This document shows, piece by piece, positions 7,777 through 40,751 of a stretch of DNA of 64,000 bases. A program made the position numbers and the translations under genes. Under the pieces are notes generated by a model. It was not told the DNA's origin, made no database searches, and was given only the letters and a program-made list of their open reading frames with translations. Each line of letters opens with the position of its first letter. The first letter of the stretch is position 1. Origin of the DNA: an uncultured Planctomycetaceae bacterium (GTDB taxonomy: Bacteria > Planctomycetota > Phycisphaerae > Phycisphaerales > Zrk34). The DNA lies in contig CAZUHK010000001.1 of assembly GCA_964620345.1 (NCBI GenBank), positions 4,544-68,543 of the forward strand, in the 5' to 3' direction.

Positions 7777-8553
7777 CTACAACAAATGCGTTTCGAGGAA
7801 AGCCACCGTCGTCGCCAGCAGGCGTTCGCGGTCGGGCACCTCGGTGAAATCGTGATCGGCGGTGGTCATCTCGATCCGCTCGCACGGGCGGTGGAGCTGG
7901 GCGCACCGCCGCTGGTAGTGTCGCGATTCGTCGACATCGACCACCTCATCGGCGGTGGAATGGAAGACGATGATCGGCGCATCGCTGTCGGCGAGGCGAG
8001 CGGGGGTGTTGACCGCGTCGAGCGCGGCGACGAAGCCGGCGCCGAGCTTCAGGCCACGGTACGGCGCCCAGCCCTGGTGTTCGAGCACGGCGCGCAGACC
8101 GGTCTTGGCCGTGGCGCCGAAGGTGCGCGGCATGTCGTACACCGGCGCCCACAGGGCCAGCGCCGCGGCGTTTCGCTCGGCGTCGATCGCCACGGCCGGC
8201 AGCGCCCCCAGCGACACGCCGACCCACGCCAGCTTCCGGTGGTCGCACCACGGCTGGGCCGCGGCCCAGTCGGCCACGGCGCGGCAGTCGTCGATCATGC
8301 GCCCGATGGTGTGTTCGGTGAAGTCGCCGGTCGATTCGCCGCAGCCGGACTGATCGAAGCGGACGCAGGCGATGCCGACCGCGTTGAGCCGGCGGGCGAA
8401 CTCGACCTGGTGATAGCTCTTGCCCAGCCGATTACCCGTCAGGCCGTGGACCACGAAGACCGTGGGCCGGGGGCCATCGCCCTCATCAGGCCGATCGACG
8501 GACACGGCGAGCCGCTCGTCGCCGCTGGGTATGTGATGGAACGTCATCGCCAT
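7777..8553 (-). CDS. alpha/beta hydrolase
   Basis: HGLTGN oxyanion region and nucleophile elbow GVSLGA. Start set at MAMTFHH; the upstream part of the ORF is acidic low-complexity. Confidence 0.75.
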   Translation of the reverse strand: MAMTFHHIPSGDERLAVSVDRPDEGDGPRPTVFVVHGLTGNRLGKSYHQVEFARRLNAVGIACVRFDQSGCGESTGDFTEHTIGRMIDDCRAVADWAAAQPWCDHRKLAWVGVSLGALPAVAIDAERNAAALALWAPVYDMPRTFGATAKTGLRAVLEHQGWAPYRGLKLGAGFVAALDAVNTPARLADSDAPIIVFHSTADEVVDVDESRHYQRRCAQLHRPCERIEMTTADHDFTEVPDRERLLATTVAFLETHLL

Positions 8554-17784: not shown

Positions 17785-18191
17785 GCCGAACCGTCGTCGA
17801 CGCCAGCGTCCTGATCAAGCTCTACATCAACGTGGCCGGATCGCGTCGTGCGACGACGGCGATCAAGAAGGCCCAAGCGTTGTTCGGGCCCGATCTGCTC
17901 TGGCCTGAGGTGGGCAACATCCTCTGGAAATACGTCCGTCGCGATGAGTTGGAAGGTGAGAACGCCGGGGCGATGCTCGCCGACATGATCCAGATGCCGA
18001 TCCAGATCACGGCCACGCGGGATGTCATCACGCAGGCGTTGCAGATCGCCCCGCTAACGGATCGAACGGTGTACGACAGTGTGAACCTGGCGACTGCGGT
18101 GCAGACCAAAGCCGTGTTGCTGACGGCCGACGAGCGGCTGGTCAACGCGCTGGCGCAGACACCGTGGTCGAGATTCGTGCGTGGTCTGTAG
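17781..18191 (+). CDS. vapC: PIN-domain toxin VapC
   Basis: N-terminal VVDASVLIK acidic motif, size 136 aa, coupled to the antitoxin. Confidence 0.8.
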   Translation: MSRTVVDASVLIKLYINVAGSRRATTAIKKAQALFGPDLLWPEVGNILWKYVRRDELEGENAGAMLADMIQMPIQITATRDVITQALQIAPLTDRTVYDSVNLATAVQTKAVLLTADERLVNALAQTPWSRFVRGL

Positions 18192-34975: not shown

Positions 34976-35122
34976 TCGGCCGGTCGTGTCAATCTGGCAA
35001 ACCGGGTGAACTTCGGGGCACCGCGCGGGCCGCACAGCCCATCGCCCTTGCAATTTTGCTTCATTTGTCGCCCGAAACTCGGCGATTGGGTCTTGCCTTG
35101 TGGCCACGGTGGGCTACATTAG

Positions 35123-35464
35123 ATGCATCCACCGAAGCAACGGGGCAGAACGATGAACGATCCCGATGGCTATTTCACCGGCCCGGACGACCCGTACCAC
35201 GGCCAGGGTTTTCGACAGGTCACCGCACTGCCGCAGTGGCGGGTGCTGTTGCACGATGACGAGGTGCACGATCAGGGCCACATGATCGACGCGCTGACCG
35301 GCCACACGCCGCTGAGCCGCGCCGCGGCCACGCAGCGCGTCGTCGACGCCCACCGCGATGGCACGGTCAACCTGTTGACCTGTCACCAGGAACTGGCCGA
35401 GCTCTACTGCCTGCAACTGTCCAAGCAGAACCTGATCGTCACCATCGAACGCGCGGTCGAATAA
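35123..35464 (+). CDS. clpS: ATP-dependent Clp protease adaptor ClpS
   Basis: WRVLLHDDEVHDQGHMIDAL...AATQRVVDAHRDGTV. Alternative start at 35153. Confidence 0.75.
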   Translation: MHPPKQRGRTMNDPDGYFTGPDDPYHGQGFRQVTALPQWRVLLHDDEVHDQGHMIDALTGHTPLSRAAATQRVVDAHRDGTVNLLTCHQELAELYCLQLSKQNLIVTIERAVE

Positions 35465-35494
35465 ACCTTGAGCGCCGCGGCTTCGCCGTGCCCT

Positions 35495-36133
35495 TCAGCC
35501 GACCAGAAACGGATTGGTCGCCCGCTGGGTACCGATCGTCGTCGCCGGCCCATGCCCCGGATACACGCGCACCGGATCCGGCAGCGTCATCAGTTGCTCC
35601 CGGATCGACCGCATCAGCGCCGCGCCATCGGAATGGGGAAAGTCGTACCGACCGATCGACCCGGCAAAGAGCGTGTCGCCCACGATCGCCACGCCGGCGT
35701 CCGGCTGGTAGAGCGTGATGCCGCCGGGCGAATGGCCGGGGGTATGACGCACCTCGAAGCTCAGATCGCCCAGCTTCAGTGGCGCGCCCGGCTCGATCGC
35801 GCCGGTCGGGTCCGGCGCCCGCATCGGCATGCCGAACGGCCCCGAAAGGTTGTTCGCCGGGTCGCCGGGGTAACTCTGCTCAACCGGATGGATCAGCACC
35901 GGTAAATCAGCGAAGGCGTTGGTGATCGGCGCGATGCCCGCGATGTGATCGAGGTGGCCGTGGGTCAGGATCAGCTTGCTCGGTGTCAGCCCCCGGCGGC
36001 GGACGTAATCGATCATCGCCTCGGGCTCGAAGCCCGCGTCGACCAGCCAGCAATCCCCGCCCGCGGCCAGCACGTAGCAGTTGGTCTGCCACATGCCCAG
36101 CGTGAACATTTCGATATGCAGCGCGTCGCTCAT
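35495..36133 (-). CDS. MBL-fold metallo-hydrolase (glyoxalase II-like)
   Basis: THGHLDHIAG motif, 212 aa. Confidence 0.85.
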   Translation of the reverse strand: MSDALHIEMFTLGMWQTNCYVLAAGGDCWLVDAGFEPEAMIDYVRRRGLTPSKLILTHGHLDHIAGIAPITNAFADLPVLIHPVEQSYPGDPANNLSGPFGMPMRAPDPTGAIEPGAPLKLGDLSFEVRHTPGHSPGGITLYQPDAGVAIVGDTLFAGSIGRYDFPHSDGAALMRSIREQLMTLPDPVRVYPGHGPATTIGTQRATNPFLVG

Positions 36134-36157
36134 GCGGCCAATGGTAACACAGCGGAT

Positions 36158-36185
36158 TTGCCTGCCCCGCCTGACCGGGTATACT
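36158..36185 (+). promoter_or_regulatory. sigma70-like promoter TTGCCT-16 nt-TATACT
   Basis: -35 at 36158-63 and -10 at 36180-85, 10 nt upstream of the leader-peptide ATG. Confidence 0.4.
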
Positions 36186-36195
36186 TCCAGCCGAC

Positions 36196-36252
36196 ATGCA
36201 GCACCGTTCGACCATCATCGCCGGCATCATTACCATGACCGAACTTCGGTAG
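36196..36252 (+). CDS. Ile-rich leader peptide MQHRSTIIAGIITMTELR
   Basis: Hand-translated 18-codon ORF with 4 Ile (ATC ATC .. ATC ATT) and 3 Thr. Its stop codon lies inside the antiterminator strand. Confidence 0.5.
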   Translation: MQHRSTIIAGIITMTELR

Positions 36253-36283
36253 GGCTGGCGATCGTACGCACGAGACACACAAG

Positions 36284-36307
36284 CCCTGCCGGACGGCGGG
36301 GTTTTTT
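36284..36307 (+). terminator. attenuator terminator upstream of cimA
   Basis: Stem CCCTGCC (36284-90) pairs with GGCGGGG (36295-301), followed by TTTTTT (36302-07). The alternative pairing 36247-56 with 36282-91 (10 bp) excludes it. Confidence 0.55.
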
Positions 36308-36345
36308 CGTGACCCGCCGGCCCGGCGCATCGACAGGACACCGCC

Positions 36346-37950
36346 ATGAGCGATGACAAGCCCCGCCGACGGATCGAAATCTACGACACCACGCTGCGCG
36401 ACGGCACCCAGGCCGCGGGCGTTTCGCTGTCGCTGATCGACAAGATCAAGATCACCAAAGCCCTGGACGCGATCGGCGTGGACTACATCGAGGGCGGCTA
36501 CCCCCTTTCCAACCCCAAGGACGTGGCCTACTTCGAGCAGGTCCGCGATCTGGACCTGCGGCACGCGAAGATCTGCGCGTTCGGCATGACCCGGCGCAAG
36601 GACATCGACGTGCAAGAAGACGCGGGCATGCAGGCGCTGGTCCGGGCCGGCACCCCGGTCGTCACGATCGTCGGCAAGACATGGGATTTGCACGTGGACC
36701 AGGTGCTGCGCGTCAGCCGGGATGAGAACCTGGCGATGATCGAAGAATCGGTGGCGTTCTGCGCCCAGGGCGGTCGCGAGGTGTTCTACGACGCCGAGCA
36801 TTTTTTCGACGGCTACGAGGCGAACCCGGACTACGCGACGAAGACCGTGCAGGCCGCGGTCGCCGGCGGGGCCAGCCGCGTCGTGCTGTGCGACACCAAC
36901 GGCGGGAGCTTGCCCGAGCGCGTCGCCCGCATCGTCGATGAGATCCGTTGCGTGCTGGGCAAGGACGTGAAGCTCGGCATCCACACGCACAATGACGCGG
37001 GCTGCGCCGTGGCCAACGCGCTCGCCGCCGTCCGCCGCCAGTGCGTGCAGGTGCAGGGCACGATCAACGGCATCGGCGAGCGCTGCGGCAACGTCGACCT
37101 GACCACCGTCATCGCCAACCTCATGCTCAAGATGAAGCACGACTGCCTGGCCGGCCCCGACGCCCTGCTCGGGTTGACCGAGATCAGCCGCTTCGTCTAT
37201 GAGCTGGCGAACATGAACCTGCGCGAGCATCAGCCGTACGTCGGCTCGGCCGCGTTCGCCCACAAGGGCGGCATGCACGTGCACGCGGTCAACCGCATCG
37301 CCCACAGCTACGAGCACGTCGATCCGGCGTCGGTGGGCAACACGCGGCAGATCCTCGTCAGCGAGTTGTCGGGCGTGAGCAACGTCACGGCGCTCATCGG
37401 CGACAAGTTCGGCGCCGCGGCGGACAAGGACCTGCAGCGCCGCGTGCTGGGGCGCGTGCAGGAGCTCGAACACGCCGGCTACCAGTTCGAGGCCGCCCGC
37501 GCCAGCTTCGAGCTGCTGGTCCGCAGCGAGCTGGGCCAACGCAAGGACTACTGGCAGCTCGACCACTACCGTTGCGTGATCCTCAAGACCGACTCGACCG
37601 AACCGACGACCGAGGCGATCGTCAAGGTCACGGTCGACCGCACGCTTGAGCACCACGTGGCCGAGGGCGACGGCCCGGTCAACGCGCTGGACGCGGCGCT
37701 GCGCAAGTGCCTCAAAAACCACTACCCGCAACTGGCCGACATCCACCTGCGCGACTTCAAGGTGCGCGTGGTCAACGCCACGCAAGAAACCGCCGCGAAG
37801 GTGCGCGTCACGACCGACTTCGCCGTGGTCGACCCCGACGCGGCCGATGAATACTTCAGCACCATCGGCGTGAGCGAGAACATCGTCGAGGCCTCCTGGC
37901 AGGCGCTGATCGACGCCTTCGAGTACCACCTGCTCAATCGCGGCGCGTGA
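36346..37950 (+). CDS. cimA: (R)-citramalate synthase
   Basis: IEIYDTTLRDGTQAAGVSLSLIDKIKITKALDAIGVDYIEGGYPLSNPKD. 534 aa with a LeuA-type C-terminal domain. Confidence 0.85.
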   Translation: MSDDKPRRRIEIYDTTLRDGTQAAGVSLSLIDKIKITKALDAIGVDYIEGGYPLSNPKDVAYFEQVRDLDLRHAKICAFGMTRRKDIDVQEDAGMQALVRAGTPVVTIVGKTWDLHVDQVLRVSRDENLAMIEESVAFCAQGGREVFYDAEHFFDGYEANPDYATKTVQAAVAGGASRVVLCDTNGGSLPERVARIVDEIRCVLGKDVKLGIHTHNDAGCAVANALAAVRRQCVQVQGTINGIGERCGNVDLTTVIANLMLKMKHDCLAGPDALLGLTEISRFVYELANMNLREHQPYVGSAAFAHKGGMHVHAVNRIAHSYEHVDPASVGNTRQILVSELSGVSNVTALIGDKFGAAADKDLQRRVLGRVQELEHAGYQFEAARASFELLVRSELGQRKDYWQLDHYRCVILKTDSTEPTTEAIVKVTVDRTLEHHVAEGDGPVNALDAALRKCLKNHYPQLADIHLRDFKVRVVNATQETAAKVRVTTDFAVVDPDAADEYFSTIGVSENIVEASWQALIDAFEYHLLNRGA

Positions 37951-37954
37951 CGAT

Positions 37955-39346
37955 GTGCCGCGGTATCCTCTGTGGTCGTCCGTTTCCCGGAGCATTGCGT
38001 TGAACGTGCTGGACTGGCTGGATCGGTTGCCGCGACGGCAGTTGCTGACGCTGGTGTTTCTGGGGGCGTTGGCCGGGAACGTCGCGGCCGTGGTGACCAG
38101 CAAGGGCAACCAGCCGCCCAAGCCCGGCGACGGGGTCGATTACGATTCGATCGCGTTCGCCCTCGTCCACGGCCACGGCTACGCGCGCTACAGCGGCCAC
38201 CCGGATTTCCAGACGCCTTACCTCAACGCGCAGGACGCGGAGCGCGTGGCCGAATACACCCAGATGTTTCAGCACGCCGGGCCACCGGCGCCCACGGCCT
38301 ACCGCCCGCCGGGCCTGCCGCTGATGCTCGCGGGGATTTACGGTTCGGTCGGCCGACACTTCATGGTCTGGCGGCTGGTCAACGCCACGTTCATCGCCCT
38401 GGCGGTGACGCTCGCGGCATCGCTGGCGTTTCGCCTGGCCGGGCAGTGGGCGGCGATCTTCTGCGGCATCATCGGCGCCGCCGACCCCTCGCTCAAACGC
38501 TACGCCGGCAACCTGCTGGCCGAGGGCATGGCCATGCTGATGGTCGTTCTGCTCGCCTGGGCCCTGGTGAAGCTCTTCGAGCACCGCTCGATGCTTCGCG
38601 CGGCGCTGGTGGGCCTGACGCTGGGCGTGATGGTGCTGGTCCGATCGATCTTCCTGATCTGGCTGCCGCTGACGCTGGCGGCCGCGGCGTTCCTGTGGAC
38701 CTGGCCCCACCGCTCGGCCCGGCGCGTCGTGCCGGCCACGGCGCTGCTGCTGGGCGCGGCGCTGCTGGCGCCCAGCCCCTGGTGGGCGCGCAACGTGATC
38801 GCGCTCGACGCCTTCATGCCCACCGGAACCCAGGGCGGCATCGGCCTGCCCGGCGGTTACTCCGATCAGGCCCTGGCCAACTCCGGCTTCTGGATCAGCG
38901 CGACCGATCACGTGCCGGAACTGGTCAAGGCCAAGCAAGAACTGCACGCCTCGAACCGCACGCCGCTGCGGATCGAACGCGACCTGTCCCGCGCCGGCAC
39001 GGCGTTCGTCATCGGGTGGATGGCGGATAATCCGGTGGGCGTGCTGAAGCTGATGGCACTCAAGGGCTATCACCTGTGGACGCGGCCGTCGACGATCCAG
39101 GGCCTGATCTTCGCCTGCCTCGGGCTGCTGGGTGTGCGATGGTGCTGGCGGCGGCGCGACGCGGCGGCGCTCGTGCCGTGGCTGCTGATCGGCTTCAACA
39201 TGCTCGCCGCGATGGCCACCTACGTGACCCACGGCGGGCGGTTCATCGTCGCGGTGCTGCCAATGCTGCACATCGTCGGCGCGATCGGCCTGTGGCGGCT
39301 GATCGATCATTTCGACCATCGCGACAAGGCCGTGGCCGACGCTTGA
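37955..39346 (+). CDS. GT-C fold glycosyltransferase (ArnT/PMT, GT39/GT83-like), paralogue 1
   Basis: Polytopic membrane protein. First-loop acidic motif GDGVDYDSIAFAL and AYRPPGLPLMLAGIY. GTG start; exact start uncertain. Confidence 0.7.
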   Translation: MPRYPLWSSVSRSIALNVLDWLDRLPRRQLLTLVFLGALAGNVAAVVTSKGNQPPKPGDGVDYDSIAFALVHGHGYARYSGHPDFQTPYLNAQDAERVAEYTQMFQHAGPPAPTAYRPPGLPLMLAGIYGSVGRHFMVWRLVNATFIALAVTLAASLAFRLAGQWAAIFCGIIGAADPSLKRYAGNLLAEGMAMLMVVLLAWALVKLFEHRSMLRAALVGLTLGVMVLVRSIFLIWLPLTLAAAAFLWTWPHRSARRVVPATALLLGAALLAPSPWWARNVIALDAFMPTGTQGGIGLPGGYSDQALANSGFWISATDHVPELVKAKQELHASNRTPLRIERDLSRAGTAFVIGWMADNPVGVLKLMALKGYHLWTRPSTIQGLIFACLGLLGVRWCWRRRDAAALVPWLLIGFNMLAAMATYVTHGGRFIVAVLPMLHIVGAIGLWRLIDHFDHRDKAVADA

Positions 39347-39407
39347 GCGTTTTGTTGACCGTCCGCACAGGCCTGATTAGAGTCGGCCGTTTTCCCAGGA
39401 AGCCCGG

Positions 39408-40751
39408 ATGTCGGCCACCACGATCCTCGAACGCATCTCCCGGCGGACGCTGTTCTGGGTGGTGTTCGCAATCGCGATGGTCAGCAACGTCGTGGTCATG
39501 CTCGTCCTGCGCGGCAATCTGCCGCCGACGGCCGACGATGCGATGAGCTACGACTGCATCGCGGTGCAGATCGCCGCGGGCAACGGCTTCGCCCTGGACA
39601 CCCGCGATCCGGAATACCTGCGGGCCTATCGCGAGGCGCCCAATGCCCGCGAGTACAGCTTGGCCGAGCCCGATGCCTCGGTGCCCGCGCGGCCGACCGC
39701 TTTCCGTCCGCCGGGCCTGCCGTTCGTCCTCGCGGGCATTTACCAGAGCTTCGGTCGGGTGTTCATCATCTGGCGACTGATCGGCTGCGCGCTGATCGCT
39801 CTGGCGATCGCGACCGCGGCGGTCGTGGCCGATCGGCTGGGCGGGCGCGGCGTGGCGACGATCGCCGCGGTCATGGGCAGCGTCGATCCAAACCTCAAGG
39901 TGTACGCCGGGCGATACTTCACCGAGTCGATGGCGATCGCGGGCATGGCGCTGCTGCTGTGGGTGCTGGTGCGGCTGCTGCAGGCCCGCACCGCGCGCTG
40001 GGCCCTGGCGACGGGCGCGACGATCGGCCTGCTCATCCTCGCGCGCAACCTCTACGTCGTGCTCATCCCGGCGATCATCTTCGCGGGCGTGGTGCTCGCC
40101 GTGCTGTACCGGGATCGCGCGGCGATGGTGCTTCGGCTCGCGCTGCTGTGCCTGATTCCCGCGGTGTTGATTCCGATGCCCTGGTGGGTGCGCAATTGCC
40201 TGCTGCTGGATGCGTTCATGCCCACCGGCACGCAGAGCGGCTTTGGCATGCCCGGCGGCTGGTCGGATGCGACGATCGCCAACGACGGCTTCTGGGCCGC
40301 GCCGGAGGTGGAGATTCCCGAGTTTGTCGCACTCCATCGCGAACTGGAATGGACCGGCGAACAGGGCACGATCAGCGAGCGCATCTTCGCCCGGCGCGGC
40401 GTCGCCTACGCCGGGGCGTGGATCGCCGAGCACCCGGTCGCGGCGGTGAAGCTCGCGCTGCGAAAGGCGTGGCTGCTGTGGACGCGCGACCGGGCGCTGC
40501 ACGCCGCGGCATTCATGCTGCTGGGCCTGTTCGCCCTGGCCGACCGCCGACGCCGCTCGGTCGCGTGGTGGGCCCCGTGGGGGCTGGTGATCCTCACGAC
40601 GCTGGCGGCGATGGCCAGTTGGGTCACCGAGGGCGGTCGGTTTATCCTGCCGCTCATGCCCGCGCTGTTCGTGCTCGGCGCCCTGGGCGGCTGGCACGCG
40701 ATCGAGCGCCTGTTCCCCGCCGCCGCGCAAGCCGAGCCGACGCATGACTGA
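39408..40751 (+). CDS. GT-C fold glycosyltransferase (ArnT/PMT-like), paralogue 2
   Basis: Same architecture as paralogue 1: ADDAMSYDCIAVQI and AFRPPGLPFVLAGIY. Confidence 0.7.
   Translation: MSATTILERISRRTLFWVVFAIAMVSNVVVMLVLRGNLPPTADDAMSYDCIAVQIAAGNGFALDTRDPEYLRAYREAPNAREYSLAEPDASVPARPTAFRPPGLPFVLAGIYQSFGRVFIIWRLIGCALIALAIATAAVVADRLGGRGVATIAAVMGSVDPNLKVYAGRYFTESMAIAGMALLLWVLVRLLQARTARWALATGATIGLLILARNLYVVLIPAIIFAGVVLAVLYRDRAAMVLRLALLCLIPAVLIPMPWWVRNCLLLDAFMPTGTQSGFGMPGGWSDATIANDGFWAAPEVEIPEFVALHRELEWTGEQGTISERIFARRGVAYAGAWIAEHPVAAVKLALRKAWLLWTRDRALHAAAFMLLGLFALADRRRRSVAWWAPWGLVILTTLAAMASWVTEGGRFILPLMPALFVLGALGGWHAIERLFPAAAQAEPTHD

Follow-up and report, generated by a model that had tools for sequence, protein, structure and literature searches.

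The enterobacterial ilvGMEDA (ilvL) and ilvBN (ivbL) operons are governed by leader-peptide attenuators, in which runs of branched-chain amino acid codons stand before RNA segments that form alternative 1:2, 2:3 and 3:4 hairpins. This design is common to the ilv, thr, leu and trp attenuators of enterobacteria, and good documentation of classical attenuation comes chiefly from Proteobacteria, Actinobacteria and some Firmicutes. An isoleucine-specific T-box is also predicted before a cimA/leuA-like gene in Deltaproteobacteria (we found no paper on it). In Corynebacterium glutamicum, the ilvBNC attenuator is leaderless and follows a three-hairpin model of anti-antiterminator, antiterminator and terminator (AAT/AT/T; PMC11857589), and leader peptides before trpE, leuA, ilvB and aroF have been seen by RNA-seq (PMC3890552). 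Here we analyse the leader of cimA, the gene for (R)-citramalate synthase, in a 64,000-nucleotide stretch of DNA from an uncultured Planctomycetaceae bacterium (contig CAZUHK010000001.1, hereafter the window). Judged from sequence comparison and predicted folding, this leader is very probably a ribosome-mediated leader-peptide transcription attenuator, which would make cimA respond to charged tRNA-Ile. A first-pass annotation of the window had proposed such an isoleucine-specific attenuator, and both the comparative and the thermodynamic evidence support it. The same annotation knew of no description of this for cimA in the lineage; our literature search also found none of leader-peptide attenuation for cimA or in Planctomycetota, and in PMC4833913 Planctomycetes appear solely where that paper surveys how far leader genes lie from structural genes.

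With the enterobacterial ilv leaders, the planctomycete locus shares a short leader open-reading frame (ORF), four RNA segments, mutually exclusive hairpins (with moderate support for 1:2) and an intrinsic terminator before a biosynthetic gene. The textbook enterobacterial leaders are multivalent (Ile/Val/Leu), with a Shine-Dalgarno sequence and a longer 5′ untranslated region (UTR), and control ilv operons, whilst the planctomycete leader is Ile-only, appears near-leaderless, has an antiterminator arm that takes in the leader stop, and would control cimA; no sequence relationship between the two is detectable. The closest system is C. glutamicum ilvBNC, likewise in a high-GC host, whose leaderless messenger and anti-antiterminator, antiterminator and terminator hairpins match those predicted for the planctomycete leader, and the C. 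glutamicum leader of aroF, which encodes 3-deoxy-D-arabino-heptulosonate 7-phosphate (DAHP) synthase, parallels an aromatic-run leader before the DAHP synthase gene of our source genome. C. glutamicum differs in belonging to another phylum and in its targets, which are ilvBNC, leuA and trp rather than cimA, ileS and thrS. The function of the Corynebacterium terminator is debated (PMC11857589), whereas the planctomycete terminator is canonical and carries compensatory changes.

The coordinates of the leader are collected in Table 1. Its sigma70-like promoter is the sole such match in a consensus scan of 35000–39000 (shuffles give 0.3), and the leader ATG begins 10 nt past the −10 box with no Shine-Dalgarno sequence. 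The ORF has four Ile in six codons, and Thr at codons 6, 13 and 15. The promoter of the first-pass annotation (both boxes, the 16-nt spacer and the distance to the ATG) agrees with ours in all coordinates, and its 18-codon ORF with four clustered Ile and three Thr was confirmed in the sequence. Of 28 related leaders, 26 have a TAnnnT box 6–10 nt 5′ of the start codon, and TTGCC-like −35 boxes recur among them; because this spacing of the −10 box leaves no room for a Shine-Dalgarno sequence the leaders are probably leaderless or near-leaderless; in the window, the 5′ UTR would be about 0–3 nt.

Such an Ile run is rare in this genome. Of 7,444 short ORFs in the source genome (G000, 3.2 Mb, 67% GC; ATG-started ORFs of 12–30 codons on both strands), two have at least four Ile in six codons, one being the cimA leader, which bears out the earlier remark that the run is unusual for a GC-rich genome. 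The other, MIIISLIRPVMCSRPWASIMPMSPVWK (contig C39, + strand, 17835–17918), has no terminator 3′ of its stop and is probably internal or antisense to a gene. Ile makes up 4.7% of a proxy for the proteome, and in the long ORFs of G000 its codons are ATC in 92% and ATT in 6.8% of cases. A strict scan found 92 terminators in the 3.2 Mb, counting both strands, and by that scan the cimA leader is the only Ile-rich short ORF of the genome with its stop within 70 nt of a terminator. The cimA leader element is not due to chance.

The arrangement is conserved. We compared 41 genomes (the source genome and 40 relatives), 24 of which have a CimA match at E ≤ 1e-100, the closest cimA loci being labelled Phycisphaeraceae, Phycisphaerae and Planctomycetota. 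CimA orthologues at 65–79% identity lie 3′ of the same leader, and wherever a related locus has its 5′ region intact (23 loci), the same layout occurs 5′ of cimA: a −10 box, an Ile-rich short ORF usually ending CGG-TAG, a GGCTGGCGATCG-like sequence, and CCCTGCC-loop-GGCrGGG-T6. The stop codon is followed by GGG in each of the 23. The alignment of cimA upstream regions that the first-pass annotation had put forward as a check thus finds the Ile run, the stop-containing antiterminator and the terminator kept in every related cimA locus. In a wider set of 80 further cimA loci spread over Planctomycetota, many have an Ile/Val-rich leader and a terminator 5′ of cimA; these loci are labelled Phycisphaerae, Tepidisphaerales, Pirellulales, Gemmatales, Planctomycetales, Isosphaerales and, for metagenome-assembled genomes, Kuenenia, and include one of Gemmata type (L099).

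A curated set of 28 leaders, 14–24 codons each, was used to ask what is kept within the ORF, which is intact in all 28. Each leader holds three to seven Ile codons, and 27.5% of all residues in the set are Ile, the proteome proxy having 4.7%. ATH triplets number 138, 6 and 0 in frames 0, +1 and +2, and because they are confined to one frame the Ile run is selected as codons, not merely as RNA. These frame-specific codons, together with the −10/start spacing, also suggest that the leader is translated and that its translation is coupled to transcription. Four to nine non-Ile codons (median six) separate the last Ile codon from the stop, just enough to hold the antiterminator 5′ arm (segment 2) outside a stalled ribosome, and the terminator arm follows the stop at a median distance of 31 nt (28–39 nt in most leaders). 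Several further features of the ORF can be recorded here. ATC and ATT occur at 69:68, so that ATT supplies 68 of the 138 leader Ile codons compared with 6.8% in the long ORFs of G000, a figure for the source genome; the high ATT share may have been favoured because it slows decoding or loosens the RNA structure where the ribosome would stall. The non-Ile tail (36232–36252 in the window) is rich in Pro, Ser, Thr and Arg (e.g. TPRPTR, SPSPR, SPPR), and the C-terminal residue is Arg in 23 of 28 leaders, at least the last codon being set by RNA pairing (CGG or GGG).

The two pairings that would decide between termination and read-through are both conserved and covary, and since they share segment 3 they are mutually exclusive, as had been claimed. 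Covariation scores were compared with 500 shuffles and, for the antiterminator, pairing was also compared with slid registers. The terminator is 96.9% paired over the 28 sequences with four compensatory pairs, and none of the 500 shuffles reached its score. The 10-bp pairing of 36247–56 with 36282–91 that had been read across the leader stop is real, contains one G·U and extends to 12 bp (36245–56/36282–93). In the class-level alignment (A2; 57 matches, 54 distinct sequences) this 12-bp helix is 81.7% paired over the 54 distinct sequences, against 31–51% in slid registers, and its covariation score is 0.163 against 0.080 shuffled, a value reached by 0 of 500 shuffles. At the pair 36247/36291, C:G is found in 25 sequences of A2, G:C in 20, a wobble in two and no pairing in three. 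With the flip at 36247 the final sense codon, CGG (Arg), becomes GGG (Gly), and the compensating change falls on the first nucleotide of the terminator loop; the flip alters the peptide and is nonetheless compensated, hence selection acts on the RNA pairing and not on the peptide sequence, a clear case of RNA constraint overriding coding sequence.

Across the phylum, the leader stop falls within the 14-nt stretch most complementary to the terminator 5′ arm in 53 of 60 loci, where the positions scanned would lead one to expect about 20%. Arms of the CCCTGCC class go with a TAG stop (32/34) and CCCTCAGG arms with a TGA stop (10/11), and segment 2 binds arms of its own class more strongly than those of the other (−13.3 vs. 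−8.4 and −9.5 vs. −4.9 kcal/mol); the association of stop type with arm type fits the attenuator model but is confounded with phylogeny. For the third pairing, between the coding region and segment 2, the best duplex has a mean z of −1.17 relative to codon shuffles, with 16 of 28 leaders below −1 and some loci near 0.

Secondary structures and energies were predicted with RNAfold, mimicking ribosome positions by leaving only the RNA downstream free. The terminator claimed from CCCTGCC/GGCGGGG and the T6 run folds as a hairpin (sequence CCCTGCC-GGAC-GGCGGGG, then T6) that ends 38 nt before the cimA ATG, as the earlier annotation had it. The whole antiterminator hairpin (36245–93) reaches −23.7 kcal/mol, is more stable than the terminator (−16.8 kcal/mol) and forms before segment 4 is transcribed. 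A further, anti-antiterminator hairpin pairs 36218–25 with 36254–61 (its first arm inside the Ile block), 36233–34 with 36252–53 and 36238–42 with 36246–50. Folding under ribosome constraints, the check suggested in the first-pass annotation, gives three predicted structures for three positions. For the whole leader with no ribosome, the minimum free energy structure is 1:2 plus 3:4, the termination state, at −40.2 kcal/mol. When a ribosome sits on the Ile codons, leaving RNA free from ~36232 or ~36244, it is the 2:3 antiterminator (−31.1 and −24.4 kcal/mol, respectively), and with a ribosome at the stop and RNA free from ~36265, solely 3:4 can form. The two-state model first drawn for this locus, in which a ribosome stalled on Ile codons permits read-through and one reaching the stop enforces termination, is borne out by these structures, and is extended by the 1:2 hairpin, which would make it the classical four-segment design, and by a probably near-leaderless messenger.

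We would then picture the following sequence of events. Transcription would start at the leader ATG or up to ~3 nt from it, and the leader would be translated whilst the polymerase is still transcribing it. When Ile-tRNA is scarce, the ribosome would stall within the regulatory codon block, cover segment 1 and leave segment 2 free; segment 2 would pair with segment 3 as soon as that is made, no terminator would form and the polymerase would read through into cimA. When Ile-tRNA is plentiful, the ribosome would reach the TAG and mask segment 2, the 3:4 terminator would form, and transcription would stop at the T run. If no ribosome loads, the 1:2 hairpin would sequester segment 2, again with termination as the predicted outcome. 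We infer the stalling, the termination in vivo and its efficiency, and the isoleucine response from the arrangement of codons and segments.

Table 1 Features of the cimA leader, its neighbouring genes and related leaders (five-digit coordinates without a locus label are positions in the window).
Feature	Position	Strand	Details
sigma70-like promoter	36158–36185	+	−35 TTGCCT 36158–63, 16-nt spacer, −10 TATACT 36180–85
Leader ORF	36196–36252	+	18 codons, MQHRSTIIAGIITMTELR; ATG 36196, stop TAG 36250–52
Regulatory codon block	36214–36231	+	Ile-Ile 36214–19, Ala-Gly, Ile-Ile 36226–31; proposed stall site
Anti-antiterminator (1:2) hairpin	36205–36268	+	−21.3 kcal/mol (RNAfold), within the full-leader minimum free energy structure
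Segment 2, antiterminator 5′ arm	36245–36256	+	UUCGGUAGGGCU; includes leader stop 36250–52; pairs with 36282–93
Segment 3	36281–36293	+	antiterminator 3′ arm 36282–93 overlaps terminator 5′ arm 36281–90
Segment 4	36295–36307	+	terminator 3′ arm 36295–304 and T6 run 36302–07
Terminator hairpin	36281–90 with 36295–304	+	10 bp, loop GGAC, −16.8 kcal/mol (RNAfold)
cimA, (R)-citramalate synthase	36346–37950	+	534 aa; TIGR00977 656.7 bits (cut-off 450)
Divergent metallo-beta-lactamase (MBL)-fold hydrolase gene	35495–36133	−	PF00753 123 bits
Two PMT_2-like GT-C membrane glycosyltransferase paralogues	37955–40751	+	begin 4 nt past the cimA stop
Ile leader and terminator before ileS	L136:333–443, L137:308–421, L138:3023–3130 (minus), L140, L112, L116		Phycisphaerales
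Thr-run leader before thrS	L141, L143, L145, L146, L148; also L129, L134, L135		the first five are family f2, same order
DAHP synthase leader	contig C26, stop near + strand position 8090, outside the window	−	promoter TTGACC-17-CATAAT, 12-nt gap

Several observations weigh against the attenuator. In the order-level alignment (A1) the antiterminator core CGGUAGGG/CCCUGCCG is nearly invariant, 82% paired, and free of covariation; the covariation of this helix stems from the deeper comparisons, where counts are inflated by relatedness. The 1:2 helix is moderately supported and the position of segment 1 in the ORF varies. The spacing of the −10 box and the ATG is the sole ground for leaderless initiation, and the consensus promoter/terminator scan of 35000–39000 did not report this terminator, which at a guess it may miss by running the stem into the T run. 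Finally, read-through would also feed the two GT-C glycosyltransferase genes downstream of cimA, which are unrelated to isoleucine and would be odd cargo for an Ile-specific switch, and between cimA and these genes the consensus scan found no terminator. The GT-C neighbour is unique to the source genome, being next to cimA in none of the relatives compared; we thus ruled it out as a conserved operon partner, and because it is absent in relatives the conserved target is cimA.

Of the other explanations, the one that survives best, and is still improbable, would have the attenuator sense the general state of translation or of coupling, or act through Rho or through translation of cimA. Anything that slows the leader ribosome 5′ of segment 2 would favour the antiterminator, and the 1:2 hairpin gives termination whenever translation initiation fails, which speaks for such a sensor. 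Against it stand a roughly six-fold enrichment of Ile codons, the sole conserved coding feature in leaders where Val makes up 1.0% and Leu 3.0% of residues, and the targets of the family, cimA and ileS. Against action through Rho or translation stands the terminator itself, a canonical hairpin with T6 that lies 38 nt from the ATG and is clear of the AGGA ribosome-binding site. Moreover, the distance from terminator to cimA varies freely from 16 to 268 nt, and because it is unconstrained, it points to transcriptional rather than translational control.

We consider it very unlikely that the short ORF is instead the gene of a small hydrophobic peptide with a function and a terminator of its own, cimA being promoted separately. 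ORF, promoter and terminator do make up a complete small transcription unit, and Ile-rich peptides could be membrane-active, but beyond the Ile run neither peptide sequence nor length (14–24 codons) is conserved, and the last residue changes from Arg to Gly in step with the compensating terminator-loop change, as expected if the pairing is what is selected. The consensus scan found no promoter-like site between the terminator and cimA, a gap of only 16–24 nt in some relatives, and the Thr version before thrS and the aromatic version before DAHP synthase (see below) argue for amino-acid sensing and not for a peptide product.

The T-box deserves comparison, as it senses tRNA-Ile charging at the same pathway step and acts by antitermination; it differs in binding uncharged tRNA directly, without translation, whereas the codons of the cimA leader are read in frame. 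Between 35900 and 36600, the T-box model of Rfam has no match at E-values up to 10 and no Rfam family reaches its threshold. The best match, Thr_leader (RF00506), reaches 21 bits (E = 0.2), short of the 55-bit gathering threshold, so the cimA leader is not a member; in common are a leader rich in ACC/AUU/AUC followed by a GC-rich terminator, and the match is one of shared design, not homology. We set aside the weak Thr_leader and P9 matches of Rfam, which owe their scores to the terminator and the ACC/AUU codons alone. A riboregulator that binds a ligand, a tRNA or a protein (T-box-like, a riboswitch, or like the trp RNA-binding attenuation protein, TRAP) and has an incidental ORF is as improbable as a peptide gene, since terminator/antiterminator switches are common to all these classes but the cimA leaders have ATH triplets in one frame, an ORF that is always intact, a start at a fixed distance from the −10 box, a stop inside segment 2, and a start-to-stop region with no conserved structure apart from the 1:2 pairing. 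On the evidence of codon frame, pairing and distance, T-box or riboswitch, stand-alone peptide gene and translational control were rejected, which leaves the ribosome-mediated attenuator as our reading.

The genomic and metabolic setting of cimA is compatible with that attenuator. Upstream lies the divergent MBL-fold hydrolase gene, an arrangement kept in 16 related loci, and because this gene is divergent the + strand terminator cannot serve it. The regulatory domain of IlvA (PF00585) was not found in the source genome or in 20 relatives, and was detected in five control genomes. Citramalate synthase is therefore likely the sole committed entry to isoleucine, so that Ile-only leaders make sense; the argument of the first-pass annotation, that isoleucine attenuation suits the threonine-independent route opened by CimA, is strengthened by this absence. 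The annotation of cimA is in turn supported by its regulatory context, because Ile and not Leu codons precede what is a LeuA-like enzyme.

The same design recurs before other genes. We built a covariance model (R1) on the 28 leaders and searched 201 whole genomes of the class with it; 51 genomes had a match, and each of the 30 best R1 loci, at one or two per genome, sits immediately 5′ of cimA (25), ileS (2) or thrS (3). The source genome has a single R1 match, its own ileS and thrS being without a leader. Five genomes have a second copy of the Ile leader, placed before ileS (TIGR00392; the L136 ORF scores 677.8 bits), with leaders such as MHKTTDSIAIIITSPKNR and MQQAPLIIAIIIGSPDLR. In one family, a Thr-run (Thr8) leader such as MHRPTTTTTTTTATRHRG, ending GGC-TAG, precedes thrS (TIGR00418, 638.7 bits), followed by a terminator of the form GCCCGGCCGC...GGCCGGG-T5; the model built on Ile leaders also found these Thr leaders because the architecture is shared. 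The DAHP synthase gene of the source genome (NF006421, 457 bits) is preceded by the leader MMTRRFYFWRFFFSGGKRSAEGIAQG, which has a Phe/Tyr/Trp run and a 13-bp terminator with T5, and a candidate antiterminator (UCCGCA...UGCGGA) would form before its segment 4 is transcribed.

The cimA leaders apparently constitute an undescribed family of Ile leader-peptide attenuators, widespread in Planctomycetota, whose mechanism is that of the textbook. We lean slightly towards the broader reading that they belong to an undescribed, phylum-wide regulon of leaderless attenuators, with Ile leaders before cimA and ileS, Thr leaders before thrS and aromatic leaders before DAHP synthase; in this regulon the shared design would be a leader stop built into the antiterminator, with segment 2 mimicking the terminator 3′ arm. 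Classical attenuation would thereby extend to a phylum for which we found no description of it, and would gain a new target in citramalate synthase, which catalyses the committed step of isoleucine synthesis by the threonine-independent route. At ~150 nt, the cimA leader would also be a compact, ready-made Ile-responsive switch, and a simple genetic handle on the coupling of transcription and translation in Planctomycetota. Gottshall et al. are said to have claimed, in PNAS in 2014, that the two processes are spatially separated in this phylum. Devices of this kind need ribosomes close behind RNA polymerase, so their presence across the phylum, including in Gemmata-type genomes (L099), would be genetic evidence that transcription and translation are coupled there.

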